From Octopus vulgaris (lineage: Eukaryota), in the NCBI GenBank assembly GCA_951406725.2, contig OX597814.1:210242001-210306000 (forward strand): a DNA stretch of 64,000 nucleotides, in the 5' to 3' direction. Numbering within the stretch: position 1 is the first letter of the stretch; each line of letters starts with the position of its first letter. Positions 1,691 to 57,100 of the stretch are shown in pieces. Below the pieces are notes generated by a model. That model was not told where the DNA came from, made no database searches, and worked only from the letters and a program-made list of their open reading frames with translations. A program made the position numbers and the translations under genes.

Positions 1691-3830
1691 TGTGTATATG
1701 TATACTTGTGTGTGGATGTATGTGTGTGAGTTTCTCTGTGTGTGTGTGTGTATGTGTGTGTGTATGTGTGTGCGTGCCTTTGTGCTTAAAAACTGGAATT
1801 TGAGCTCCCATAGAACTCACTGAAAACATTATATTTATCGAATTTATTTACAAATTTGTAGTTCATAGAGGCCATATTTTATTTGCATTCTGGCAGAAAT
1901 ACTTAGTGACTCCAGTCGAACAATTTTTAATCTCAAACATTCCCACTAAAACGGCTGTTTATATATAGAATGTTATTGTAAGTTGCAGCAGCACGAAAAT
2001 TTGTAAAATCCTGGCAGTTAAGCTAAACTTTTCATTCAATCTGATGTTATATTGATATACTCGATTGCTATTCTTATATCTGTTTAATTATGTTCAACAA
2101 ACGTTTTTCTTGAGTTTACGAAATAATTGTGTTCTCTTGTCTTCTTTATCGGATGCTGGACACAAATTGAAATCTCTTATTCAAACAAAATCACTCAATG
2201 AATACAGTTCCTTTCTTAACGGCACTTATTTTTGGAATAGATTCAATTCTAAGAACAAATATACGAGAAGATTGCTAGCGACTCCATTAAAAATACTGCC
2301 TCTGCTTCTATGTGTTATTTGATTTGAGTTTCTGACGTTCATTTATAAACTTTACAAACTCACAATAAAGATTAGTACAAATTGTAAATCTTCCATTATG
2401 GACGGCGCTGACAGAACATTCTACACGAAGTGAAATACAATTAAAAAAATAAAAATAATAAGCAAACAAAACAAAGTGAAACAGAACGGGAAATATCAGC
2501 TACATCCCACAGCGCGATTGCGTGAGTACATATAACATTTTCTCGATCATCTCCCTTTGAAAATACTTCTTTATAGACTAGAAAAACGAAAAAACGAAAT
2601 ACAAGAAATTAGCTCATACATATATATATATATGAATGTATGTGTATATGCATATGTATGTGTGTATGTATGTGTATAAATGTATATGCGTACAGTACGT
2701 ACACATATGCACATACACAAACACACACATACATACTTTTTATCGACTATAGAGCCAATTACATTTCACGAAATTCCTATTTTCTAGACCTTCAACAAAA
2801 TAACTTTTTATTTAACTTCTTTCGCAGTTACAGTAACGAAAAGACGACGCACAAATTGTTAATAACGAAAAGTTAATTACGAAGAATAATAAGAGAAGGT
2901 TACTTGCGAATGACAAATAAGATGGCGGTGTATTGACGTGAACGCGGGTTACCTTCTAGTCTATTTTGCAACGTTTCGAAAACCCTTTTGATGGGTTGCC
3001 AGCGCTTGATCTGACGTAGTAAAACAACTTATCCGATGCATTCTTAGTGATGGTATGTTACGTATACAGAAGATGAAGACAGTGGCGATAGCGCTAGTTT
3101 TCTAATAAATAACGAATCGTATACAATTGTACTCGAAGATATTGTGTGATTCCTCAGCTACAATTCATGTTAGAATTACACACTTGCTTTCAGAACACAT
3201 CCGATGCAGACTATGACCAGATTACAAAGTTAGAAAAGAGACCCGGTGTATAAAATGTACATATGATAAATGAAACGAAGCAGGGTAGCGACCCACCAGT
3301 CTTCCACTGTGTAATTGCCAGCGCAAGTTCCCACTATTTGTCTATTACAGATTGCAGCCGAATCTTCATTAATTCATATCCTTTTCAATAAGGAGAGCAT
3401 CCCGCGAATCCCCTAAATATATGGGGTGGCAACTACAATGTCTTCTGTAACAGGATTAGTTTGTGTTTTGCAAGTATATATATATGTATTTGTACACTTA
3501 TAGTTGTCCCCATAGATACATGATAGCAAAGTACTTTGAAAGATGCTTGACTATACAATTTTTTATTTTATTTCTACAGCCTCCTAAAGAGGCGCGAGCA
3601 GTTAGTTACAATGAGATGATGAAAAAGGACATGCATGTAATATACGTTTCTGAAATATCATTGAAAAATAAAGCAAAAGAGGATATAAAGTCTGAAGACA
3701 AAAATCACGGGAACCTCCAGGCGATTCTTGTGTGGCAAAATGTGAACTTTTACATTAGCAAACCTAGTTTCTTTGATGTGAAATGTGCTTCATACACTTA
3801 TCATGGGCCAGCATGTATATATACTCATGT

Positions 3831-4118
3831 GATCACGTGACCGACCAGACCATCAGATGTTTTTACACATCGCTGGTCACAATGCGTTCGCATTGTTTTA
3901 GCCTTCGAATGACGCCACCCCACTGGCTAAGCGAGCAGGCCAACAGAAGAAAGAGTAGTGAAAGAGTACAGCAGGGATCACCACCCCCTGCCGGAGCGTC
4001 GTGGAGTTTTAAGGTGTTTTCGCTCAATAAACACTCACAACGCCCGGTCTGGGAATCGAAACCGCGATCCTGCGACCGCGAGTCCGCTGCCCTAACCACT
4101 AGGCCATTGCGCCTCCAC
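3831..4118 (-). mobile_element. tRNA-derived SINE, family A with type-2 3' body
   Basis: Minus strand starts GTGGAGGCGCAATGGCCTAGTGGTTAGGGCAGCGGACTCGCGGTC with Pol III A box and B box (GTTTCGATTCCC). 12-bp TSD ATATACTCATGT at 3819-3830 and 4119-4130. Same body as 23101-23421. Confidence 0.9.
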
Positions 4119-5356
4119 ATATACTCATGTACGTATGCATATCTACCAGCACACAGATTACAAATTTAGAAAAGATAAAGGAAGAAAGTGTAAAAATTAT
4201 TGAATTCTCTGTTTTTTTTTCCCGAGTCATTATACTATATGTTGAAACTTATCTAGATTAAGTGAGTCTTTAGCAACCATGCTGGAATATTGAATAGACT
4301 TAGATTTCATTAAGCCCGAAATTCACATTTCAGCTGGCTGTAGACCATATATGTTTATTAAACATAGGATTGTAATTTCGTTTACTAACTAAATGTCTAT
4401 AACCCTGTGCGGATATTCACTTGCATCGTCAACTTTACATCAATATTTAGATCTGATCAGTAAGCAAATCCAGACAGGATGTTAAAAGTTCTCGAAACTG
4501 AATCTAATTTTCCCACGGTGGCTTTGTTCCCAGTAAGACTAAGTATGTGTTTACTCGACGTACTATTAGAACTGTGTTCAGAAATAAGAAAAGAAATAGT
4601 TGAGGTGGTGATCCATTTAATGCGTGTGTATTTTTGTATTTGTGTATAATATACACAAAGTAAGAAAACGGATAGATAGTATATTACATACACAGTTATG
4701 AAAACAGAAAAGGATTTTTCGCTGAATAACATTGCCCTGGTTTTCATTATTTACAAGCTTAGGTTTTTATCTCTACATATCATTTTGTTAATAGCCATAA
4801 CATGTGCTTAGATGAATATTTACTTGATGTGAGACTGTTGCTGGGCCATAAGAAACCACGTGAAATTTGCCTCACCAATCATGACCGGTCTCATCTGGTC
4901 TTTGATCATGTGTTCCTGTGTGTGTGTGTGTGGGTGAGTGAGTGTGTGTGTGTGTGTGAGTGAGTGTGTGTAGCACGTGTGTAGGCGCGCGCGTATGCGG
5001 ATATGTGTCAAAGTCGCTGTGAACTTAGATTTGACACTAAAATAACAACAAAAGCAAGAAGTGTAAAAAAATGATAAAATGGAATGACAAAGAAAACAAA
5101 AAGGAAAAAGAAAACAAAAAAAAGTAGCTTCAGATTGACGAGGAAAAAGAAAGAGACGACAGAAAGTTAACAATTTGGTGAGTGAACACAGAGAACTTCA
5201 CCAAAGAATCAACTGAGAGAAAAGAATAATAAAGAACATGTAAGATCAAAGTTTAATAGAAATTAGTAAATGGAAAAAGAATAAAATGCCATAAAAAGGA
5301 AGTGAAGCAGATGGGAGGGAAATGAACGTAAATTAACAACAGTGTATAATAAAGTA

Positions 5357-5403: not shown

Positions 5404-6017
5404 AAAGCGTGCATTCTTTGTAAGTCACTTCTGTTTTTTGATCGCATTGAAGAGTCAACAAACGGAGAGGATTAGGCACTGAGTCAATACTGCTTACTTT
5501 GTTGATTGGTTTATGAAAAGTCAGAATATTGCAAGATACTAAAGGCTTATCTGCTAGGATTAGGTCAGAAGAGGAGAATCGATCGATTTAGTTTTATATT
5601 GTACCAGCCAATACAGGTTGAGATATTCACTACAAAGTCAGTCAACTGGAAAAAATTCCAAGAATAAACCTTTTAGTTCTTTTTCTTTTCTTTTTTTGAT
5701 CAACAAAAGTATTGATATTTTTGGTTTAATAAATGCTTTCTGTTGGCTGTTAAAGAAAGAAGGTACACGGAATTAAAGCAACCAAGAGATAAAAGATTGC
5801 TACGACTTAATATGTATGCATGTCGAGAAGTAGTTTGACCTTGCATGTTTCCAAGAACGAACTGCTGTGAAGGAATGATGGTAGTTGTGTCTCGTTATTA
5901 TCTCGGAAGGAGAAGTCAACTAACGTATTTTCTCAACAATTCTCGTCTATAATATTATATAAATATCAATAGCATACAATATATTCTTGAATGTGTTCAA
6001 TTATATATCGGTTTTGT

Positions 6018-6399
6018 GGAGGCGCAATGGCCCAGTGGTTAGGGCAGCGGACTCGCGGTCATAGGATCGCGGTTTCGATTCCCAGACCGGGCGTTGTGAG
6101 TGTTTATTGAGCAAAAACACCTAAAGCTCCACGAGGCTCCGGCAGGGGATGGTGGTGATCCCTGCTGTACTCTTTCACCACAACTTTCTCTCACTCTTAC
6201 TTCCTGTTTCTGTTGTACCTGTATTTCAAAGGGCCAGCCTTGTCACTCTCTGTGTCACGCTGAATATCCCTGAGAACTAATTTAAGGGTACACGTGTCTG
6301 TGGAGTGCTCAGCCACTTACACGTTAATTTCACGAGCAGGCTGTTCCGTTGATTCGGATCAACCGGAACTCTCATCGTCGTAACCGACGGAGTGCATCC
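6018..6399 (+). mobile_element. Full-length tRNA-derived SINE, family A with type-1 3' body
   Basis: A box TGGCCCAGTGG, B box GTTTCGATTCCC. 15-bp TSD ATATATCGGTTTTGT at 6003-6017 and 6400-6414. Near-identical to 27430-27820(-) and 36515-36906(+). Resembles the tRNA-Arg-related octopus OR-type SINEs (recalled, not searched). Confidence 0.93.
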
Positions 6400-7142
6400 A
6401 TATATCGGTTTTGTAAACTTCTTCACGTAACAAAATCTCAGATTGTGTCTTCATTTCTACTGCTTTGGTTATGTTCTAAGCCACATATCTTCAATAATGT
6501 GTCGAGAGGAAAACCCCAGGAGAGCTTTCTAAATAATTCATACACACTGTGCTCTCAACTATGCAATATAATGAAACTTGAAGCCTCTATTAACTGAGAT
6601 TTTCTATCAATTAGTTCACAAAAGTTCTTCGGGTGACGTTTCTAAATTACGAACAGCAAGCAAGGGAGTCAGATACAATGAAATCAATTAACTGGAATTT
6701 TTCGAATATACAGAAAATGCTGAATGTAAGTCAATATGATCCTTTAATACGATGGGAACAGAAACAGCAGTTATATTTATATATTGCGACGTTATTAGAC
6801 ATCGTGAGTGAAGCCATTACTGAATGTTGGAAAATATTTTGAGTATTATCAAACGGCTTATGCGCTCTGTCATGTATACACACAGTCACACAGTAGTCAA
6901 TAATAGTTTTGTAGTTAGATAGTGTCCGCATCAGAGTCAGAGAAAAGAAAACAGTGAGTGTACTTGTGTGTGAGTGTGTGTATGTGTGTGTGTACATGTA
7001 TGTCTCCCTCTCTCCCTCTTTCTCTCTGTCTATCTATCTAGCTATCTATCTGTCTGCCTGTCTGTCTCCCTCTTTCGCTATCTATCTGTCTATCAATCTA
7101 TCAATCTGTCTGTCTGTCTGTCTCTATCTCTCTCTCTCTCTC

Positions 7143-23104: not shown

Positions 23105-23419
23105 CGTGATCACCGTGATCACCGTGACCGACCAGGTTATCAGATGTTGCTACACATCGCTGGTCACTATGCGCTACGCATTGTTTTAGCCTTCAAATGA
23201 CGCCACCCAGCTGGCTAAGCGAGCAGGCCAACAAAAGAAAGAGTGAGAGAAAGTTGTGGCGAAAGAGTACAACAGGGATCGCCACCACGCCATGCCGGAG
23301 ACTCGTGGAGCTTTAGGTGTTTTCGCTCAATAAACACTCACAATGCCCGATCTGGGAATCGAAACCGCGATCCTACGACCGCGAGTCCGCTGCCCTAACC
23401 ACTGGGCCATTGCGCCTCC

Positions 23420-23421
<2 letters not shown>
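23101..23421 (-). mobile_element. tRNA-derived SINE, family A with type-2 3' body
   Basis: Same head as 6018 and same body as 3831-4118. The tail is a 9-bp tandem (TCACCGTGA)x3. Lies between (TA)n and (CA)n. Confidence 0.9.
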
Positions 23422-23494
<73 letters not shown>

Positions 23495-26799: not shown

Positions 26800-27429
26800 T
26801 ATACTAAGCTTTTTTTAATAACTTTTAATTGTTTTGTAGAATTTCAAAATATGCATTGAATTGAATTCGCAGGGAAAACATCACATTTATGTTCTAATTT
26901 CTTAAGAAAACCTTACGTGGTTAACTTAGACCGTAACTTTGTTAAACCAAACCTATAGCCCACGCATGCTGGTTACGTAGCCTCAACGCATCACCCTGAC
27001 AATGGTGACTCTCACATTGAAGGTTGCTTAAGCTCAAAGCCCGCTGAACGTTGCCTGACCTACTGACTCACGCGAACAGCTTACCTTACGATGTGTGTGG
27101 GATCCAATACAAGGAACTGACATTTTTGATTATACTGTACCACTGTGTTAAAGTGGTGCTCGCATTCTGCCATTAGCCTTTCAGAACACTTGGGCCTAAA
27201 AACAACCGGTGTCGCTTTGATAGCATTAATACCATACTACCTGAGTTGATTAACAGGCATCTACTCTTAGAAGCTGTCTTGAATTTCTATCAAACCTTCC
27301 ACTCCCACTGGGATATCTGCTGAAATGTACATTTGCTAAAATATTCTAGTAAATGTGCTAGCGATTTCAATTTCTTATTAGGAAACGTTATTTAGCAATT
27401 TTAACGCTTTAAAATTAATTTTGTATAAA

Positions 27430-27820
27430 TGGGATGGAAGCACTCCGTCGGTTACGACGACGAGGGTTCCGGTTGATCCGAATCAACGGAACAGCCTGCT
27501 CGGGAAATTAACGTGTAAGTGGCTGAGCACTCCACAGACACGTGTACCCTTAACGTAGTTCTCGGGGATATTCAGCGTGACACAGAGAGTGACCAGGCCG
27601 GCCCCTTGAAATACAGGTACAACAGAAACAGGAAGAAAGAGTGAGAGAAAGTTGTGGTGAAAGAGTACAGCAGGGATCACCACCATCCCCTGCCGGAGCC
27701 TCGTGGAGCTCTTAGGTGTTTTCGCTCAATAAACACTCACAACGCCCGGTCTGGGAATCGAAACCGCGATCCTATGACCGCGAGTCCGCTGCCCTAACCA
27801 CTGGGCCATTGTGCCTCCAC
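27430..27820 (-). mobile_element. Full-length tRNA-derived SINE, family A type-1
   Basis: Reverse complement of 6018-6399. TSD TTTGTATAA at 27420-27428 and 27821-27829. Confidence 0.93.
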
Positions 27821-33209: not shown

Positions 33210-33882
33210 GAGGATAATATCGATATTTAAGTGTCGAAATTATCAAGTGGCCAGCATGAAAGAAATACCTTACAAAGGTAAACAAATTTTTAACAATTAA
33301 AAATGAGGGTGTCTAAAAGACACCAACATGCCGAAATAGCAGTCGAAACTCTGACTATAAAACCACGTTAAATGTTCATATCGCACCATGAGGTAAAGCG
33401 GAGGGGCAAAACATACAAGCAAAAATTATTGAATAATTCAAGATCCAAGGATTTCTGGTTCTGCTTTAGATAAATTATATATATAGATAAATCTCATATA
33501 TAAATTTATATAATTCGTTATTATATTCACTGCGGTGCTTATTTTAACCATATCGTACTTATGCGGTGATTTGGCGGGCGATTCAAGCTGGCTGTGTCCA
33601 TACGTGCATATGTATGTATGTGCGGCGCTCGTATATGTAAGTATATCGTTTGCTGTGCATATATATATCTGTATTTATGTACCCTTGATATATTCAATTG
33701 ATGACGGTAAAGCTTATCTAAAGCAGAACCAGAAATCCTTGGATCTTGAATTATTCAATAATTTTTGCTTGTATGTTTTGCCCCTCCGCTTTACCTCATG
33801 GTGCGATATGAACATTTAACGTGGTTTTATAGTCAGAGTTTCGACTGCTATTTCGGCATGTTGGTGTCTTTTAGACACCCTC

Positions 33883-33888
<6 letters not shown>
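33210..33888 (+). mobile_element. PLE-like fold-back insertion in (TA)n: 175-bp inverted repeats plus one-sided tail
   Basis: 33299-33473 is the reverse complement of 33714-33888 (no mismatch seen). An extra ~89-bp tail (33210-33298) lies only on the left. (TA)n on both flanks. Confidence 0.85.
33692..33751 (+). ncRNA. Type-I hammerhead ribozyme motif
   Basis: ATTCAA-TTGATGA-C-GGT...ACC-A-GAAA-TCC-TT-GGA-TC-TTGAAT. 6-bp helix I, core with U at position 3, near-palindromic helix III, AUC cleavage triplet. Confidence 0.65.
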
Positions 33889-33944
<56 letters not shown>

Positions 33945-36514: not shown

Positions 36515-36906
36515 GTGGAGGCGCAATGGCCCTATTGGTTAGGGCAGCGGACTCGCGGTCATAGGATCGCGGTTTCGATTCCCAGACCGGGCGTTGTGAG
36601 TGTTTATTAAGCGAAAACACCTAAAAGTTCCACGAGGCTCCGGCATGGAATGGTGGTGATCCCTGTTGTACTCTTTCACCACAACTTTCTCTCACTCTCA
36701 CTCTTACTTTCTGTTTCTGTTGTACCTGTATTTCAAAGGGCCGGCCTTGTCACTCTCTGTATCACGCTGAATATCCCCGAGAACTACGTTAAGGGTACAC
36801 GTGTCTGTGGAGTGCTCAGCCACTTACACGTTAATTTCACGATCAGGCTGTTCCGTTGATTCGGATCAACCGGAACCCTCGTCGTCGTAACCGACGGAGT
36901 GCTTCC
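36515..36906 (+). mobile_element. Full-length tRNA-derived SINE, family A type-1
   Basis: Matches 6018-6399. 13-bp TSD ATACGATTTAGAC at 36502-36514 and 36907-36919. Confidence 0.93.
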
Positions 36907-38104
36907 ATACGATTTAGACAGCAAGAAATGCACTTGGATATGAAACACTTTGCATGCAACAAAACTTTTTGGCATGGATATGTTTCCGTAAAACCTGAAG
37001 CGGATTCTCATGATAATATTAACAAGAGGAGTAGTCTGTCTATAACACATGACCGTAATATCATGTCATATCTAAAAGTCTATACTTTTTCAATGTAAGA
37101 GAAAGAGAGAGGTATGAAATATGTAATTAACAGCCGGTAGAGTATCATCCTTAAACTGCCATGATGAAGCCACAAATATCTGTTATGGCACACTTTTTTG
37201 AAGGACAATGCACATAATTAGCAAAGACCTGCATAATACATATTCGTACATAGACACACACATACAACACACTCGCGCACGCACTCCCTTATTTTTTCAA
37301 ACGGCCAAAACTGATTTGCTTTTCCTGCTAGAGCTGGAGTCTGTGTCCTTAGTTTTGCTCTGTCCTCGTGGTCTATGTCTCTACAAATAATATGAGACAC
37401 ATATTAAGGTGCATAACATTTCAAAATATAACATGTCGTAGGCACGGTACAGAACATTAGCTATCTGTGAGCTATAATACTAGAGACGATTGCATATTTG
37501 TACAAATCTATGTTTTGTCTTGTGCTCACAACATGAAATGCTTTGATCATGAAAATAGCTGTGCTTGATTCACCAAGGTGCTTTTGAAGCATTTTGTTTT
37601 CAGAGAGTAGCTTTCGGATCCTTAGAAAATATGCTCTTCAAATACGCTGTGAAGAACGCCAGTCGTTTTGAATTTCAAATACTTAATTAACAGATGTTGA
37701 GAAGTACTAAAGTCATTTTTGTATTCAAGAAAGCATTTTATAATCAGCGGCACACACGGACATACATACCCACAAAAGTATATATGCTAATACATACACG
37801 TGCATATGAGTATGTATATAAGTATGAGCGGAGCATATGGAAAACACGAGCTTTCATGATAACATTACTATAGCGGGAATAACCAGTTAGGCAGTTGGAC
37901 GTTTTTAACATTGAGTACATCCTTTGGATGTGACAACAGTTAATATTAACATTGACACCATTTACTGCAAATGCGACCCTCAGCTGGCTCAACATGAGGC
38001 GACATGCTTTGCGAAAAGCCACAACGTAAAGTCTGCCGCATATCGCGAAACCACGATCTTATATTCTGAGGCCAACTCCCAAGCAACTATATAGAACACC
38101 GTGA

Positions 38105-43285: not shown

Positions 43286-43332
43286 TTGTGATCGTCTCAT
43301 GGTAATATATATATATATATATATATATACAG

Positions 43333-43781
43333 TATATAATTAGGGTTCAGCAACGATTTGCGTCACCACACACCGAAGTTTAGATATAGCAGTCAAAAAA
43401 TCTTAGCTATTCCTTCTACTTGAAAGGGAGTTCCCAGAAAAGTCAAAGCACTTGAAAACAAACCACGCGGGCAAAAAGGAAAAAAATGACGAAAATCATT
43501 CTATAATAGGTTAATGATTTTCGTCATTTTTTTCCCTTTTTGTCCGCGTGGTTTGTTTTCAAGTGCTTTGGTTTTTCTGTGAACTCCCTTTAAAGTAGAA
43601 GGAATAGCTAAGATTTTTGACTGTTATTTCTAAGCTTTGGTGTGTGGCGAAGCAAATCGTTGCTGAACCCTAATTATATAGTATTACTTAAACTTACCAT
43701 GAATTGGTCCTTTGCATGCCGAATTCTACTTGGTGAAATTACTGATTACTTCTTAATTAATTAATTTCACCCTTTGTTATT
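43333..43781 (+). mobile_element. PLE-like palindrome in (TA)n: 168-bp arms, 12-nt loop, ~100-bp tail
   Basis: 43333-43500 versus 43513-43680 inverted, about 13 differences by hand count. Tail 43681-43781 is shared with 7205-7310. Confidence 0.85.
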
Positions 43782-51274: not shown

Positions 51275-51329
<55 letters not shown>

Positions 51330-51461
51330 AAAATAGTAAAGTGTGAAAAAACGACAGAAGGCTTAAATGTTAAAAAATATATATATTTGTGTCAAAATGT
51401 CTGGAGAACATTGGAAAAATTTTTTTCCTTTCCTTAAAATGACATAATTTTAAAATTTTTA

Positions 51462-51501
51462 AAGAAATTACCGGTTTCGCGTGTAGCTTTTCAAATTTCT
51501 T
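51462..51501 (-). ncRNA. Minimal type-I hammerhead motif (U3-A8 core variant)
   Basis: Minus strand AAGAAAT-TTGAAAA-GC-TACAC-GC-GAAA-CCGG-TA-ATTTCTT. 7-bp helix I, palindromic ACCGGT helix III, located in the PLE 3' region. Confidence 0.7.
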
Positions 51502-51637
51502 GTGACGTTATGTTTATATTGCATGGAGTTATCGTTGTGTTTATTAACAGGAGATTTCTAAATAAGGGGAGGTAGTGAGTGATTTCTTCCGGTGTAAGGG
51601 AGATAATCGCTTAAAAATTTTTTTTCCCTTTTCCTTG

Positions 51638-52372
51638 TTAAATTCTCTGTGTCAGTATGTTCGGATGGTTGAGTCTGGGTTTGTACTTTTCAATGAAGAA
51701 TGTTTCCTTTTTCAGTCTCATTTGTGTTGATGATCCGAAAGCACATTGGTAAAATGGGAAGATTAAAAATTGTGGCAGTATTTGCTTTGCGCATTTCTCA
51801 ATGTGCTCACTAAAAGGTATCATTCTATATTCTGGGAATGCAATCTGTTGTCGATGCAGTGTGCATCTACGCCTGAGTGATAGTCCCGTTGAACCCACGT
51901 AGTCTTGGTGGCAGCCCGAGCATTTAATAACATAAATTATGTTTTCAGAGGCACAAGTAAAGTTAGATTTGATCTTGAATTTCTGTCCCTCTTTAAAGAA
52001 GAATTCTGATCCTTCCAATAGGTTAGGACATGTTGCACAGTTCGATCTACCACATTTTTTTACTTTTGCATCCGTAATTTTAGAAGACAATTTTGCCTTT
52101 GTGAGAATCTTTTTAAGTGATTTAGGCTGTTTGTAGCTTTTAATGATTTGGTGTATGTTTAGAATTTCCTTTAATTTTGGGTTTTTATGAAGTATTGGTA
52201 AATTCTGGGTGATGATGGTGAAGGCTTCTTTGTTTCTGGGGTTGTATGTAGATATGTAAGGTAGTATTTTCGGGGAAGGTGTGTTGTTGTGTTGAACTTT
52301 TCTTAAAGTTTCTATGTTGATTTCTGTTGCACGTCTGATCCCATCCTCTATGAGTTGAGCTGGGTAATTTCT
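51638..52372 (-). CDS. PLE ORF C-terminal part (RT thumb/linker plus GIY-YIG endonuclease), 5'-truncated but open
   Basis: The frame extends upstream of the listed ORF without stops: RNYPAQLIEDGIRRA...LPYISTYNP...KQPKSLKKILTKAKL...CGRSNCATC...NIIYVIKCSGCHQDYVGSTG..LRRR..LHR...ETFFIEKYKPRLN. The Cys-rich linker is Neptune-like. Confidence 0.88.
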   Translation of the reverse strand, partial: RNYPAQLIEDGIRRATEINIETLRKVQHNNTPSPKILPYISTYNPRNKEAFTIITQNLPILHKNPKLKEILNIHQIIKSYKQPKSLKKILTKAKLSSKITDAKVKKCGRSNCATCPNLLEGSEFFFKEGQKFKIKSNFTCASENIIYVIKCSGCHQDYVGSTGLSLRRRCTLHRQQIAFPEYRMIPFSEHIEKCAKQILPQFLIFPFYQCAFGSSTQMRLKKETFFIEKYKPRLNHPNILTQRI

Positions 52373-52569
52373 TTAAAAATTTAAAAATTATGTCATTTTA
52401 AGGAAAGGAAAAAAAAATTTCCAATATTCTCCAGACATTTTGACACAAATATATATATTTTTTAACATTTAAGCCTTCTGTCGTTTTTTCACACTTTACT
52501 ATTTTCTTATATATTCACCCACGTGCTTTACCAAACAAACTTTCTTATCTATATATATATATATATATA

Positions 52570-52817
52570 AATGTTTAAGTAGTTGAATGAATTATCCTAG
52601 TATGGATAATTCGGTTAACCGATACCCGGGTAGCAAATTTACGTCAGAAAGCACGGTTGAAGCTACATGCCAAGGCCAGAAATCACGTGCTTTCGTGTGG
52701 AAATTTGTGTGTTTTTTTACTAGAGATAAATGAAAGAATGGAGTCGAACGACGATTTAACAAAATTGGTATGTCCTTAAGGGATGCGTTAAATCGTCGTT
52801 CGACTCCATTCTTCCAT

Positions 52818-52825
<8 letters not shown>
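52570..52825. mobile_element. Short fold-back (39-bp arms) with a structured flank between TA and TC runs
   Basis: 52722-52760 versus 52787-52825 inverted, 1 mismatch. The upstream 150 bp contains hairpins GAATTATCC/GGATAATTC and GAAAGCACG/CGTGCTTTC. Confidence 0.65.
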
Positions 52826-53620: not shown

Positions 53621-54169
53621 AAATTAATAATAAATATTAGGGAATAAATCCAAACTTACAGGGAAAAATCAGATTTAGGATTGAATCCAATTTTATAGTA
53701 AAATATTATATTATATTAAATTAGAGACAAAGCCACTATTAGGCAAATCATACAATGAAAAACTTAAGCCAATACATACGATTATTTAATTTATATTATT
53801 TAAATATATAACAAAATTATTAAAAAATATAATTAATATATCACTACGATCGTTTCATGGCTGTTAATTTCTTTAAATTTTCAAGTCACAGTCATTCATT
53901 AGGTGGTTTAAATATTTATCTTGGCGAGGTTCATTGTTTAAACCTCGCCAAGATAAATATTTAAACCACCTGATGAATGACTATGACTTGAAAATTTAAA
54001 GAAATTAACAGCCATGAAACGATCGTAGTGATATATTAATTATATTTTTTAATAATTTTGTTATATATTTAAATAATATAAATTAAATAATCGTATGTAT
54101 TGGCTTAAGTTTTTCATTGTATGATTTGCCTAATAGTGGTTTTGTCTCTAATTTAATATAATATAATAT
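53621..54169. mobile_element. PLE-like palindrome in (TA)n: 229-bp arms, 9-nt loop, ~82-bp tail
   Basis: 53703-53931 versus 53941-54169 inverted, 3 transitions by hand count. Tail at 53621-53702. (TA)n flanks. Confidence 0.9.
53967..54030 (+). ncRNA. Minimal type-I hammerhead ribozyme motif
   Basis: CAC-CTGATGA-ATGACT...AGCCAT-GAAA-C-GATC-G-TA-GTG. Canonical core, palindromic GATC loop III, GUA triplet. The mirror copy at 53842-53905(-) has CTAATGA. Confidence 0.75.
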
Positions 54170-57100
54170 ATATATATACTTGTGTGTGTGAGTGTGCATC
54201 CGTGTGTGTGTTTGTGTACACATCGACGAAACGAAAGAAACGGATACTCAACAGATTTGGTAGCAGTTACATGCATATATGTAGTTTCGTAAGCTCGTCA
54301 CAGGAAACTTTTTTTGCGAGTAAACCATCCTGCCGTTTTGTCAGAATGCTCTATGACTTTCCAAACCCAATTTTTCTTGAAAACGATATATAATATAACT
54401 GCTTCACATGGAAATGCACTGTAACATTTGTGAAGTAAATAGATTCTTTTTTTATTACCAGCTACGTTGATATGAAAATGGGATTTTATAATTAAATATG
54501 AAGCTAGTAATTATTCCCATTTTCAGTTATGGAAAGCACATGGGTTTTTATTATCAGATACGTTCATAGGAAATCGGGTTTTTACATTTAAATATAAAGA
54601 TAGTATTTATTCATACTTTAAATTATATAAAGGTTCTATTCCTATCTGATTAAGTGAGTAATTTTCTCGCAATAATTATATATTTGAAATAGATTATAAT
54701 TTTTTTTTTCTGTGACAATATCGCGGAAGAATGTAAGATTTTATACATGCATTGTTTTGTAGATTTAATTATATGACGATATAATAATGTTGGTTATGTA
54801 CGCGGTTAATTACTGTGTTATTTGGCGAACAACAAAAAATACTTAAGTCTAAACACTGATAACGCTTCTTGTACAATGAATAGTGTCTGCTTGCAAAGTA
54901 TTTGTCATATCTAGAGGTACATAAATTTTTGTACTGTTAACCGGTTATATTCTGCACTCTGTATGCTATCATTGACTTCGACCTCAGATAGTTTATTTTC
55001 AAACTAAGAGTAATAATGTTCTGATCAATTATGCCAGTGATGCATGCACACTTAATGTTATAAATATATGTTATTTAAATATATCCTTTCGTAAATTAGT
55101 CATACTCAGCTGATAAAAGAATTGGGTTAACTGACTGCGTTATCAGCAAGTATTATATGAGGTGGTTCATTGATTTTCCAAGTTTCAAGTGTTCTCTATA
55201 TATTATAGTAATTACCTTTCTTAGTTATATAGGATTCCCATTTTTACATTATACATATTCATTCATTCTTCAATTACGTTTCTTCAATCAATATGGAATT
55301 TCCATGTTTCACAGAGTTCTCTTTAGAGGTCTTCAAGTATTTCGTTCATAGACCTTTTATAAATACAAGTAATATTAAAGGTTCACATCTTATATTCTAT
55401 TAATTCATACATAGTTTTTGGACGTAGTGTCTGCGCTTGTTTGCTTACCTTTCATGAAATTTCCAATACCACTTGTATTGCAGATTCTTTGAAGTGTTTC
55501 AAATAAGACCCTACAGTAAAGCAGAATCTATATGCTGTTTACCTTATCATATACTTTATCTTACAGTGCGAATATGATCCTTACATGACATGTTCAATAA
55601 TTATTAATAGAAAAGTGATAAATTCTTTTGTATAAGGCATTGCATTGCTGTAATTTTTAACTTCATGTAAGTTTTTTCCTTTCTTAATAGTGCATGGATG
55701 GTGTAAATCATACAAAAGTCTAGCGGTTGTGGAATCCGATAATTTGATGTATTGACAAATAGTTATATTTTGGCAACAGTACCTCAAGCTTCACTAATGT
55801 GTGTCCAACTACCTAACCGGTTTTGATGTACTTATAGAGAACTTGGATCTACGAAGTGGCCATATCTTCGAGATTCATTGTTGTATTGTGAAAAGCTAAA
55901 TTTGAGAAGTACTCTAGGTAGATACTATGCATAAGCCTGATGGTGATGGTGCAGCCACAAAATTCATTTGAATCGTTGTTGATATTTTACATTTTTAGTC
56001 TGGTACTGTTATCTTCCAATGTCAGACCCTTTAGAATCCATTATAAGAAGACTAACCTCATCTCGGTTTAATTTTTGGAAATAAGCATCGACATTTTCTA
56101 AATTTCTATACAATGTGTGCCCTTCTATATGGCATTCTTATATCTTGCAGAATGAGATATTATTCAGGAAAAGGTTTGGTTGACAGCTAACCGAGTTTAT
56201 ATAACTGACAATTATGCAATGCCATATGTATGCATGTTTAATGCAGCTATACGTATGAGGCAGTTTGCTATGTTGTGGTGTAAGTTCTCAGTATTTCTAA
56301 GATAATTCTTCTTCTTAAAAATCGGGCACGACTTTGAAAATTTATAAGAAAAGATGTGATTTATCTTGAACAAAAACAGTGAAGCAACGAACAGGCACGC
56401 CGTTAGGAAATGATAAATTGTTTGCATGTTTTACTTCACAATTTTGTTCCTCACATCCACTCGCGTGGCGCGCACTCATGCACGCACAACAAACACATAC
56501 ACACAGACACACACTTACATACACACGCACAAGCAAGGACAAATACACACAAACTTACGATTATATACATGCATAATGACTACCTCTTATATACAAAGAC
56601 ACACTTTATTTAACATCTAAAGAATGATTTGCTATGTATTTCCATGCTGTAAATTAGTTGTGTGTTGTACTGTGGTATTTATGGAAATGCATCAGATTCA
56701 TATTGTTATGTAGTTTCTATCGAAGCTCGAAGTTTCCATTCGATTATGTATGTTAACGAATGGTACGGATTCGATTGAATGGACCATTTACTACACCAGG
56801 GTATACATATATTCATATAACTATGTATATAGCTCTATAATGTTTTCTCTAGAGAATCTATAGTAATGCATGTCAAAGACATCTCCCCATACATACATAA
56901 TAAAGAAATGAATGCACGTTGATGCATAGAGACAAGAAGAAATTATACCGAATGAGGCGTAGAGTAGTATAATCTTATGAGCGAAATCATTGTACATACC
57001 CAACAGTATGACGGATTGATGCAATGCAAAAATAATAATTTAGAATACATAAAATTAGAAGACAAAGAAATTGCAACTGGTATAATTATATAACTGCTGT

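Follow-up and report, generated by a model that had tools for sequence, protein, structure and literature searches.

The 64,000-nucleotide stretch of Octopus vulgaris DNA analyzed here (the window) carries a Penelope-like element (PLE) that meets a second, inverted copy of its 3' end head to head, and the joint overlaps the predicted cleavage site of the element's hammerhead motif. This raises the question of whether a ribozyme-defined RNA or cDNA end annealed to an internal site and thereby joined two oppositely oriented cDNAs, as a preliminary description of the locus had proposed, or whether the joint and the cut overlap by chance.

A truncated element joined to an inverted copy of its 3' end

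The element runs from 52372 to 51328 on the minus strand and is truncated at its 5' end. Its reading frame (51638..52372, minus strand) comprises 244 codons, opens with R-N-Y-P in translation, and specifies the last part of the RT thumb, followed by a linker and by a GIY-YIG endonuclease that has the CCHH residues. The product was 72% identical to the C-terminal part of P0002, a 659-aa PLE protein with an RT domain, and could also be aligned with six further RT-domain proteins. The Pfam match to GIY-YIG was weak (E 0.0032, below the curated cut-off); in the endonuclease alignment, the C, H, R, E, and N columns were invariant, with two cysteines located within the GIY-YIG core. The linker, CGRSNCATC, reads CX4CxxC and fits the CX2-5CxxC definition, and four cysteines were invariant across the alignment. 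A CCHH-bearing GIY-YIG domain and a CX2-5CxxC linker are the Neptune/Nematis-type motif definitions given in PMC8557442 and, having both features, the octopus element is by these definitions an endonuclease-bearing PLE of the Neptune/Nematis type. With the Neptune/Nematis elements, as excerpts of PMC8557442 describe them, it has in common the C-terminal endonuclease and linker, a pseudo-LTR (pLTR) containing a hammerhead, 5' truncation, an adjoining inverted truncated copy, and a (TA)n target, whereas the octopus copy has no RT core and no discernible tail or target-site duplication. The RT core is gone from this truncated copy, while family contigs and the protein P0009 extend upstream into the thumb. 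Scans with a single protein gave no match among metagenome contigs and none among viral contigs.

The 3' pLTR of the long arm spans 310 bases (51328..51637, minus strand) and was covered by family contigs. On the plus strand, 52363..52507 is the reverse complement of 51328-51472, 97% alike with three differing places. The core of the hammerhead is not part of this inverted arm, which stops at the element position where the long arm also stops and is followed by a few TA bases up to about 52513. The insert is thus bounded on either side by the element's 3' end, and the truncated 5' ends face each other head to head. On the side of the long arm, the pLTR adjoins a (TA)n microsatellite (51277..51327), from which a target-site duplication would be indistinguishable. 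Linker-bearing PLEs have a (TA)n insertion bias (PMC8557442), and a direct or inverted pLTR beside a 5'-truncated body is the usual layout of the class in the accounts of PMC8557442 and PMC3846280. At 51409, it is the short arm that agrees with the family, the base of the long arm being private, which fits later drift and does not discriminate between joining routes. No private change was common to both arms in the arm comparison and the family contigs, so that the joining of two cDNAs and the folding back of one look alike in a single copy.

The hammerhead motif of the pseudo-LTR

A minimal type I hammerhead motif was found at 51462..51501 on the minus strand, with the predicted cut between 51469 and 51468. 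Stem I measures 7 bp and stem II 2 bp, stem III is palindromic, and the core is of the U3:A8 form (51494-51488). A relaxed motif scan gave three matches in the 64-kb window and none in each of 20 shuffles. Of 64 related loci fetched, two weak bacterial ones (L063 and L064) were removed before counting, and the same minimal motif was present in 23 of the remaining 62, at 101 to 573 bases behind the endonuclease match. Among the related loci, the letters of stem I varied yet still paired, and the U3:A8 core occurred in five. Furthermore, two family contigs spanned the core with all their differences elsewhere, and the core is therefore not a private mutation. Rfam gave no matches at gathering, the 116 matches obtained within 33000-55000 at up to E 10 included no hammerhead, and the monomer fold was no better than that of shuffles (-4.6 kcal/mol, z 0.33). 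On grounds of homology, the hammerhead is genuine, with a cleavage site that is predicted.

The motif shares several properties with the minimal metazoan PLE hammerheads in the parts of PMC4209133 drawn on here: type I, a palindromic stem III for dimer folding, the U3-A8 core variant, and a location in the pLTR. It differs from them in a stem II of just 2 bp and in having no extra base after position 9. In the same source, minimal forms show low cleavage in vitro, PLE hammerheads are proposed to serve in precursor self-cleavage, and inverted pairs often have a whole hammerhead in both arms.

Variation around the motif was also seen in the contigs. At 51470, nine contigs of run X2 differed from the pLTR immediately 3' of the cut by altered letters and a small deletion, suggesting a subfamily with a different stem I, of which no partner strand was seen. 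Contigs in two runs returned from 51604 or 51619 to 51415, giving a unit of ~190 to 205 bases that includes the hammerhead (51415-51619); this may be a retrozyme-like tandem derivative, or perhaps only a short A/T-run repeat present at both places. Some related loci had unusual arrangements of their own. Two long overlapping frames (L003:71-1372 and L003:1294-3645) lie in an element assembled as a 3699-base tandem unit, the first of them opening at the hammerhead, and L022 and L037 each have a separate long frame beside the RT frame, although such elements are usually described with one ORF. In L038:2306-2489, two different pLTR hammerheads stand tail to tail with their cuts 130 bases apart. 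The 2.4-kb contig L062, assigned to a bacterial metagenome-assembled genome, carries a Penelope-type ORF and a U3:A8 hammerhead and is probably animal DNA.

The microhomology at the joint

The sequence GGTAATTTCT at 52363-52372 forms the first 10 bases of the inverted copy (52363-52507) and is at the same time the antisense of the opening codons of the frame; its position had been given correctly in the preliminary description. Family contigs from 4 of 24 runs were aligned to the window, the aligned stretch ending at 52400. In three of the four runs (X2, with eight contigs, X6, and X7), contigs diverged from the window exactly behind 52372, and their loose letters there continued the native frame, encoding what stands before the motif in P0009. 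For run X1, there was no such divergence among the loose ends listed (19 of 400). The exact departure behind 52372 argues that the overlap zone truly ends there and, since the pLTR identity on the other side stops at 52363, the zone is 52363..52372 (plus strand).

The preliminary description had read these bases as codons for R-N-Y-P within a conserved xYP thumb motif. The conservation is borne out, as Y and P were each conserved in 155 of 160 relatives, while x is variable (K 48, G 47, N 25, and H 11 of the 160). The frame in the window does open with R-N-Y-P, but P0009, a family protein 98% identical to it, has D-R-H-Y-P at this place, and the closest other relatives have R-H-Y-P (P0002 and P0010) or R-Q-Y-P (P0129). 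In addition, two long contigs, record 24 of X6 and record 32 of X7, each have one unplaced difference compatible with 52369; as differences close to the end of an alignment seem to go unplaced, we infer that these fall in the sole end zone that the records have in common, 52363-52372. No second close family protein confirming the His was present among shorter proteins, cluster members, or the best 150 representatives. Judging from the protein and the unplaced differences, the native ORF is very probably mismatched at 52369.

A His codon needs another base at 52369, and the overlap would then consist of six perfect bases, a mismatch, and three more. The proposed 10-nt microhomology hence corresponds to a genuine overlap zone in which most likely 9 of 10 bases are common; an ORF natively identical over all 10 bases, on which the proposal depended, is not what the family appears to have, the His of P0009 implying a difference at one of them. 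The perfect core lies at 52363..52368 (plus strand), with the crossover in it or at its edges and the equivalent of the cut at 52366|52367. The base at 52369 (plus strand) was probably inherited from the pLTR arm, changing the family His codon to Asn, and the Asn codon in the window was probably made by the joint itself.

We compared the overlap with 200,000 random joints between the antisense of the visible ORF and the pLTR. At least six perfectly common bases were found at only 0.28% of them, and ten at none of the 200,000, which is fair evidence for joining by microhomology. The arms were thus likely joined through microhomology, as far as one joint chosen after the fact can indicate. Of the annealing mechanism proposed earlier, it is this part that gained support, while a ribozyme-defined end is possible but doubtful. 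Both microhomology joining and the inverted architecture are already described behavior: inverted pLTR joints of Adineta have a 15-bp overlap and palindromes, interpreted as self-priming (PMC3846280), and microhomology is present at L1 inversion joints (PMC11702581).

The predicted cut and the origin of the joint

The crossover could have occurred at any of seven points, from 52362|63 to 52368|69, and the predicted cut is one of them. The preliminary description had let the inverted copy start at the cut; the cut does lie within the crossover interval, but the pLTR identity begins four bases upstream of it. These four bases bear on the proposed annealing, since cDNA made from cut RNA would not contain them. 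Such a cDNA could pair over five of six bases only, and the effective pairing comes to 8 for a cDNA from uncut RNA versus 4 for an end at the cut. As worded, the idea that a cut end annealed here is for this reason partly self-cancelling. Moreover, the visible ORF contains 19 sites, that of the junction included, that pair at least as well with a cut-defined end, the best scoring 7, and GGTA, the tetranucleotide upstream of the cut, is present at 4 of 724 ORF positions. Among perfect matches of at least six bases between ORF antisense and pLTR, 6 of 74 touched the cut (~8%), and of 15 ten-base windows with nine matches, one did, at ORF position 52197, a second partner of the cut site. The match between the xYP codons and the cut site reached 2 to 5 of 10 bases in 22 related loci (L037 had no aligned YP), and on this count we rejected the idea that the YP codons pair with the cut site over a long range under selection.

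Two other hammerhead-bearing inverted elements lie in the window, both of other families, and neither starts at its cut. Relative to the respective predicted cuts, the inverted arm of element B (33298-33889) starts 32 bases upstream and the part common to the arms of element E (53694-54178) 87 bases upstream. Among the 23 hammerhead-bearing related loci, none had an inverted arm over the cut, and three had short inverted matches elsewhere. The contigs of the four runs gave nine listed joints, all skips and none strand-changing, and no place where many molecules start or stop; no loose end behind 51468-51472 was found among those listed (19 of 400). Contigs show presence, not absence, and these observations are given no weight as evidence. 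Contig depth, which is not a measure of copy number, did not rise 3' of the cut.

These and further repeats in the window have features of their own. Element E is a Penelope-type remnant of another family, with two 238-base arms head to head around a 9-base spacer and a whole hammerhead in each arm (cores at 53970, plus strand, and 53902, minus strand), the left one being mutated in the core. Element B stands beside (TA)n and has 176-base inverted arms, 100% identical, with a 240-base spacer; its hammerhead-like motif (33698-33745) has a 6-bp stem I, a U3:G8 core, an imperfect stem II, and a non-palindromic stem III. Two more inverted-arm elements adjoin microsatellites, at 43327-43684 (element C; arms ~172 bases, spacer 12) and at 52722-52825 (arms ~39 bases, spacer 26). 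No hammerhead was seen in these two, which are possibly short Penelope-type inversions. A dispersed repeat whose head resembles a tRNA is present in five copies (3829-4119, 6016-6402, 23115-23422, 27422-27820, and 36515-36920) that are 87-96% alike and probably represent a SINE family.

A toy likelihood was used to set a free end against an end fixed at the cut, with joints weighted as base^(paired bases) for bases from 1.5 to 5; it is crude and covers just one third of the element. With 52369 mismatched, the ratio favoring the cut was 27, 12, 2.3, 1.0, and 0.7 when the arm could end anywhere in the pLTR, and 92, 39, 7, 3, and 2 when it could end anywhere in the visible element. Weak weighting of microhomology thus gave ratios of 12-27 (pLTR) or 39-92 (element), and strong weighting 0.7-3. 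An earlier estimate, by which the four upstream matches alone disfavor a cut end ~200-fold, was withdrawn, the conditioned ratio being near 1 or in favor of the cut. Under this model, the joint is no argument against the cut and perhaps leans in its favor. Given likelihood ratios from 0.7 to 92, a single joint cannot decide on a ribozyme link; the prior for a cut-defined end, taken from the controls and the literature, was near 10%.

The reading we favor, to which we give an even chance, is that two cDNAs of uncut RNA on opposite target strands annealed by a short match and that the overlap with the cut is a coincidence. The endonuclease would nick and prime both strands of the (TA)n target, and reverse transcription would be initiated twice at one internal site. 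One cDNA would extend for ~1045 bases, passing the hammerhead, which was intact, while its counterpart would halt after ~145. The 3' parts of the two would then pair at the microhomology, over six perfect and likely 9 of 10 bases, and repair would trim the flap while retaining the pLTR base at 52369. In its favor, the long arm reads straight through the hammerhead, and at least one template was therefore uncut or re-joined; likewise, the four matching bases upstream of the cut are usable by a cDNA from uncut RNA. Hitting the cut is not rare, given the 6 of 74 matches that touch it and the second 9-of-10 partner at 52197, and the overlap of the match with the predicted cut is likely due to chance. 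What counts against a chance overlap is that a crossover interval including the cut is an ~8% event under this very model, and that the weakly weighted toy ratios favor the cut. The reading is also weakened by the controls within the window, two elements of other families, and by the base at 52369, which is deduced from one protein and unplaced differences.

Several steps of the joining of two uncut-RNA cDNAs are borrowed from the in vitro behavior of the Anolis Poseidon element PAc (PMC11167929), whose protein nicks and extends both strands of an AT-rich target and initiates internally, with the cut not needed. PAc belongs to another clade, and inverted joints are not addressed in the parts of that paper used here. 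The L1 5'-inversions attributed to twin priming (PMC11702581) similarly involve opposite cDNAs joined with microhomology, by end joining, but L1 inverts an upstream part of one RNA, whereas the octopus element has its 3' end twice, and either two initiations or a fold-back are therefore needed, unlike in L1. In Adineta vaga (Pen2a, Pen2, and Pen3a; PMC3846280), the inverted pLTR is also shorter than the direct one and overlaps its neighbor at the joint (by 15 bp in Pen2a), microhomology is described at a 5' junction, and self-priming was proposed. There, the joint lies at the 5' end of the pLTR and often takes the form of a palindrome, while that of the octopus element lies inside the ORF; hammerheads are mentioned zero times in PMC3846280.

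Alternatively, the short cDNA may have had an end defined by the cut, a reading we hold to be doubtful though worth pursuing. RNA with a 5' end at the cut would be reverse-transcribed from an internal start ~141 bases downstream, the short cDNA would run off at the cut, and this strong-stop-like product would anneal to the long cDNA over five of six bases, the four upstream matches being coincidental. The predicted cut is among the seven possible crossover points, the ribozyme shows conservation, its compensatory U3:A8 core recurring in family contigs, and the likelihood ratio over a free end is 0.7-27 (pLTR) or 2-92 (element). Internal initiation downstream of the ribozyme has been published (PMC11167929), and precursor self-cleavage is the function proposed for these motifs (PMC4209133). 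Our search, made without most subscription journals and the early Penelope structure papers, found no published test of inverted-arm starts against the cut, and inverted joints are not treated in the sections consulted of PMC9977147 or bioRxiv 10.64898/2026.07.22.740005. Against a cut-defined end, only two perfect terminal pairs would form if the native base at 52369 is as deduced, and the 19 equally good or better sites, the four GGTA positions, and the two control elements speak in the same direction. Ribozyme mutants insert normally in vitro and the main text of PMC11167929 reports no Anolis RNA-seq reads beginning or ending at the cut; minimal hammerheads, as noted above, cleave poorly in vitro, and inverted arms often both keep the motif (PMC4209133). 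Naiads, although they have no ribozyme, show the same inversions (PMC8557442).

Fold-back self-priming, which we consider unlikely, would leave the ribozyme irrelevant: the 3' end of the long cDNA would pair with its own complement 890 bases back, and extension on itself would copy the pLTR end in reverse. Six perfect bases suffice for this, the pLTR base at 52369 would be produced directly, and palindromes at inverted joints have been interpreted in print as antisense-strand self-priming (PMC3846280). Elements C and E, moreover, are near-perfect hairpins with 12- and 9-base spacers. Six bases over an 890-base loop are a weak anchor, however, and the toy model makes fold-back less likely than priming from the end of a short cDNA. 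The copy would also have to stop at the insertion point and then join the other target end, and the arms have no private change in common.

It is improbable, in our judgment, that reverse transcription stalled at a folded uncut hammerhead (or a dimerized or protein-bound one) and that a cDNA that stopped a few bases beyond the cut then found its 9-of-10 partner. This would explain both the position of the joint and the use of all matching bases; the inverted arm begins within the palindromic stem III, and that of element B likewise begins within its hammerhead-like motif, in loop II. On the other hand, the monomer fold is as weak as stated above, and the arms of element E run through their hammerheads. 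An assembly or library artefact in the form of a fold-back chimera is very unlikely, for although none of the nine listed contig joints of the four runs changes strand (contigs again showing presence, not absence), the arms differ at three places and have their own flank each, the layout is textbook for these elements (PMC8557442, PMC3846280), and one run has slight depth over 52376-52400, though perhaps from a misplaced pLTR contig.

The octopus locus adds one more copy to an element type already known, with a joint that is also of a known type, and, as the architecture and the microhomology have been described previously, a single joint is an anecdote. The origin of tandem and inverted PLE pLTRs and the in vivo role of the hammerhead are named as open questions in PMC8557442 and PMC11167929. 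Tentatively, the hammerhead cut might set the 5' end of Penelope RNA, and a run-off cDNA that does not make the jump to the RNA's 3' end would anneal to an oppositely made cDNA and give an inverted pLTR with its start at the cut; if this were true, the ribozyme's activity in vivo would have left its footprint in the genome at this joint. Were the inverted arms of this young, abundant family to pile up at the cut, a shaping of the template by the ribozyme would have evidence from in vivo.
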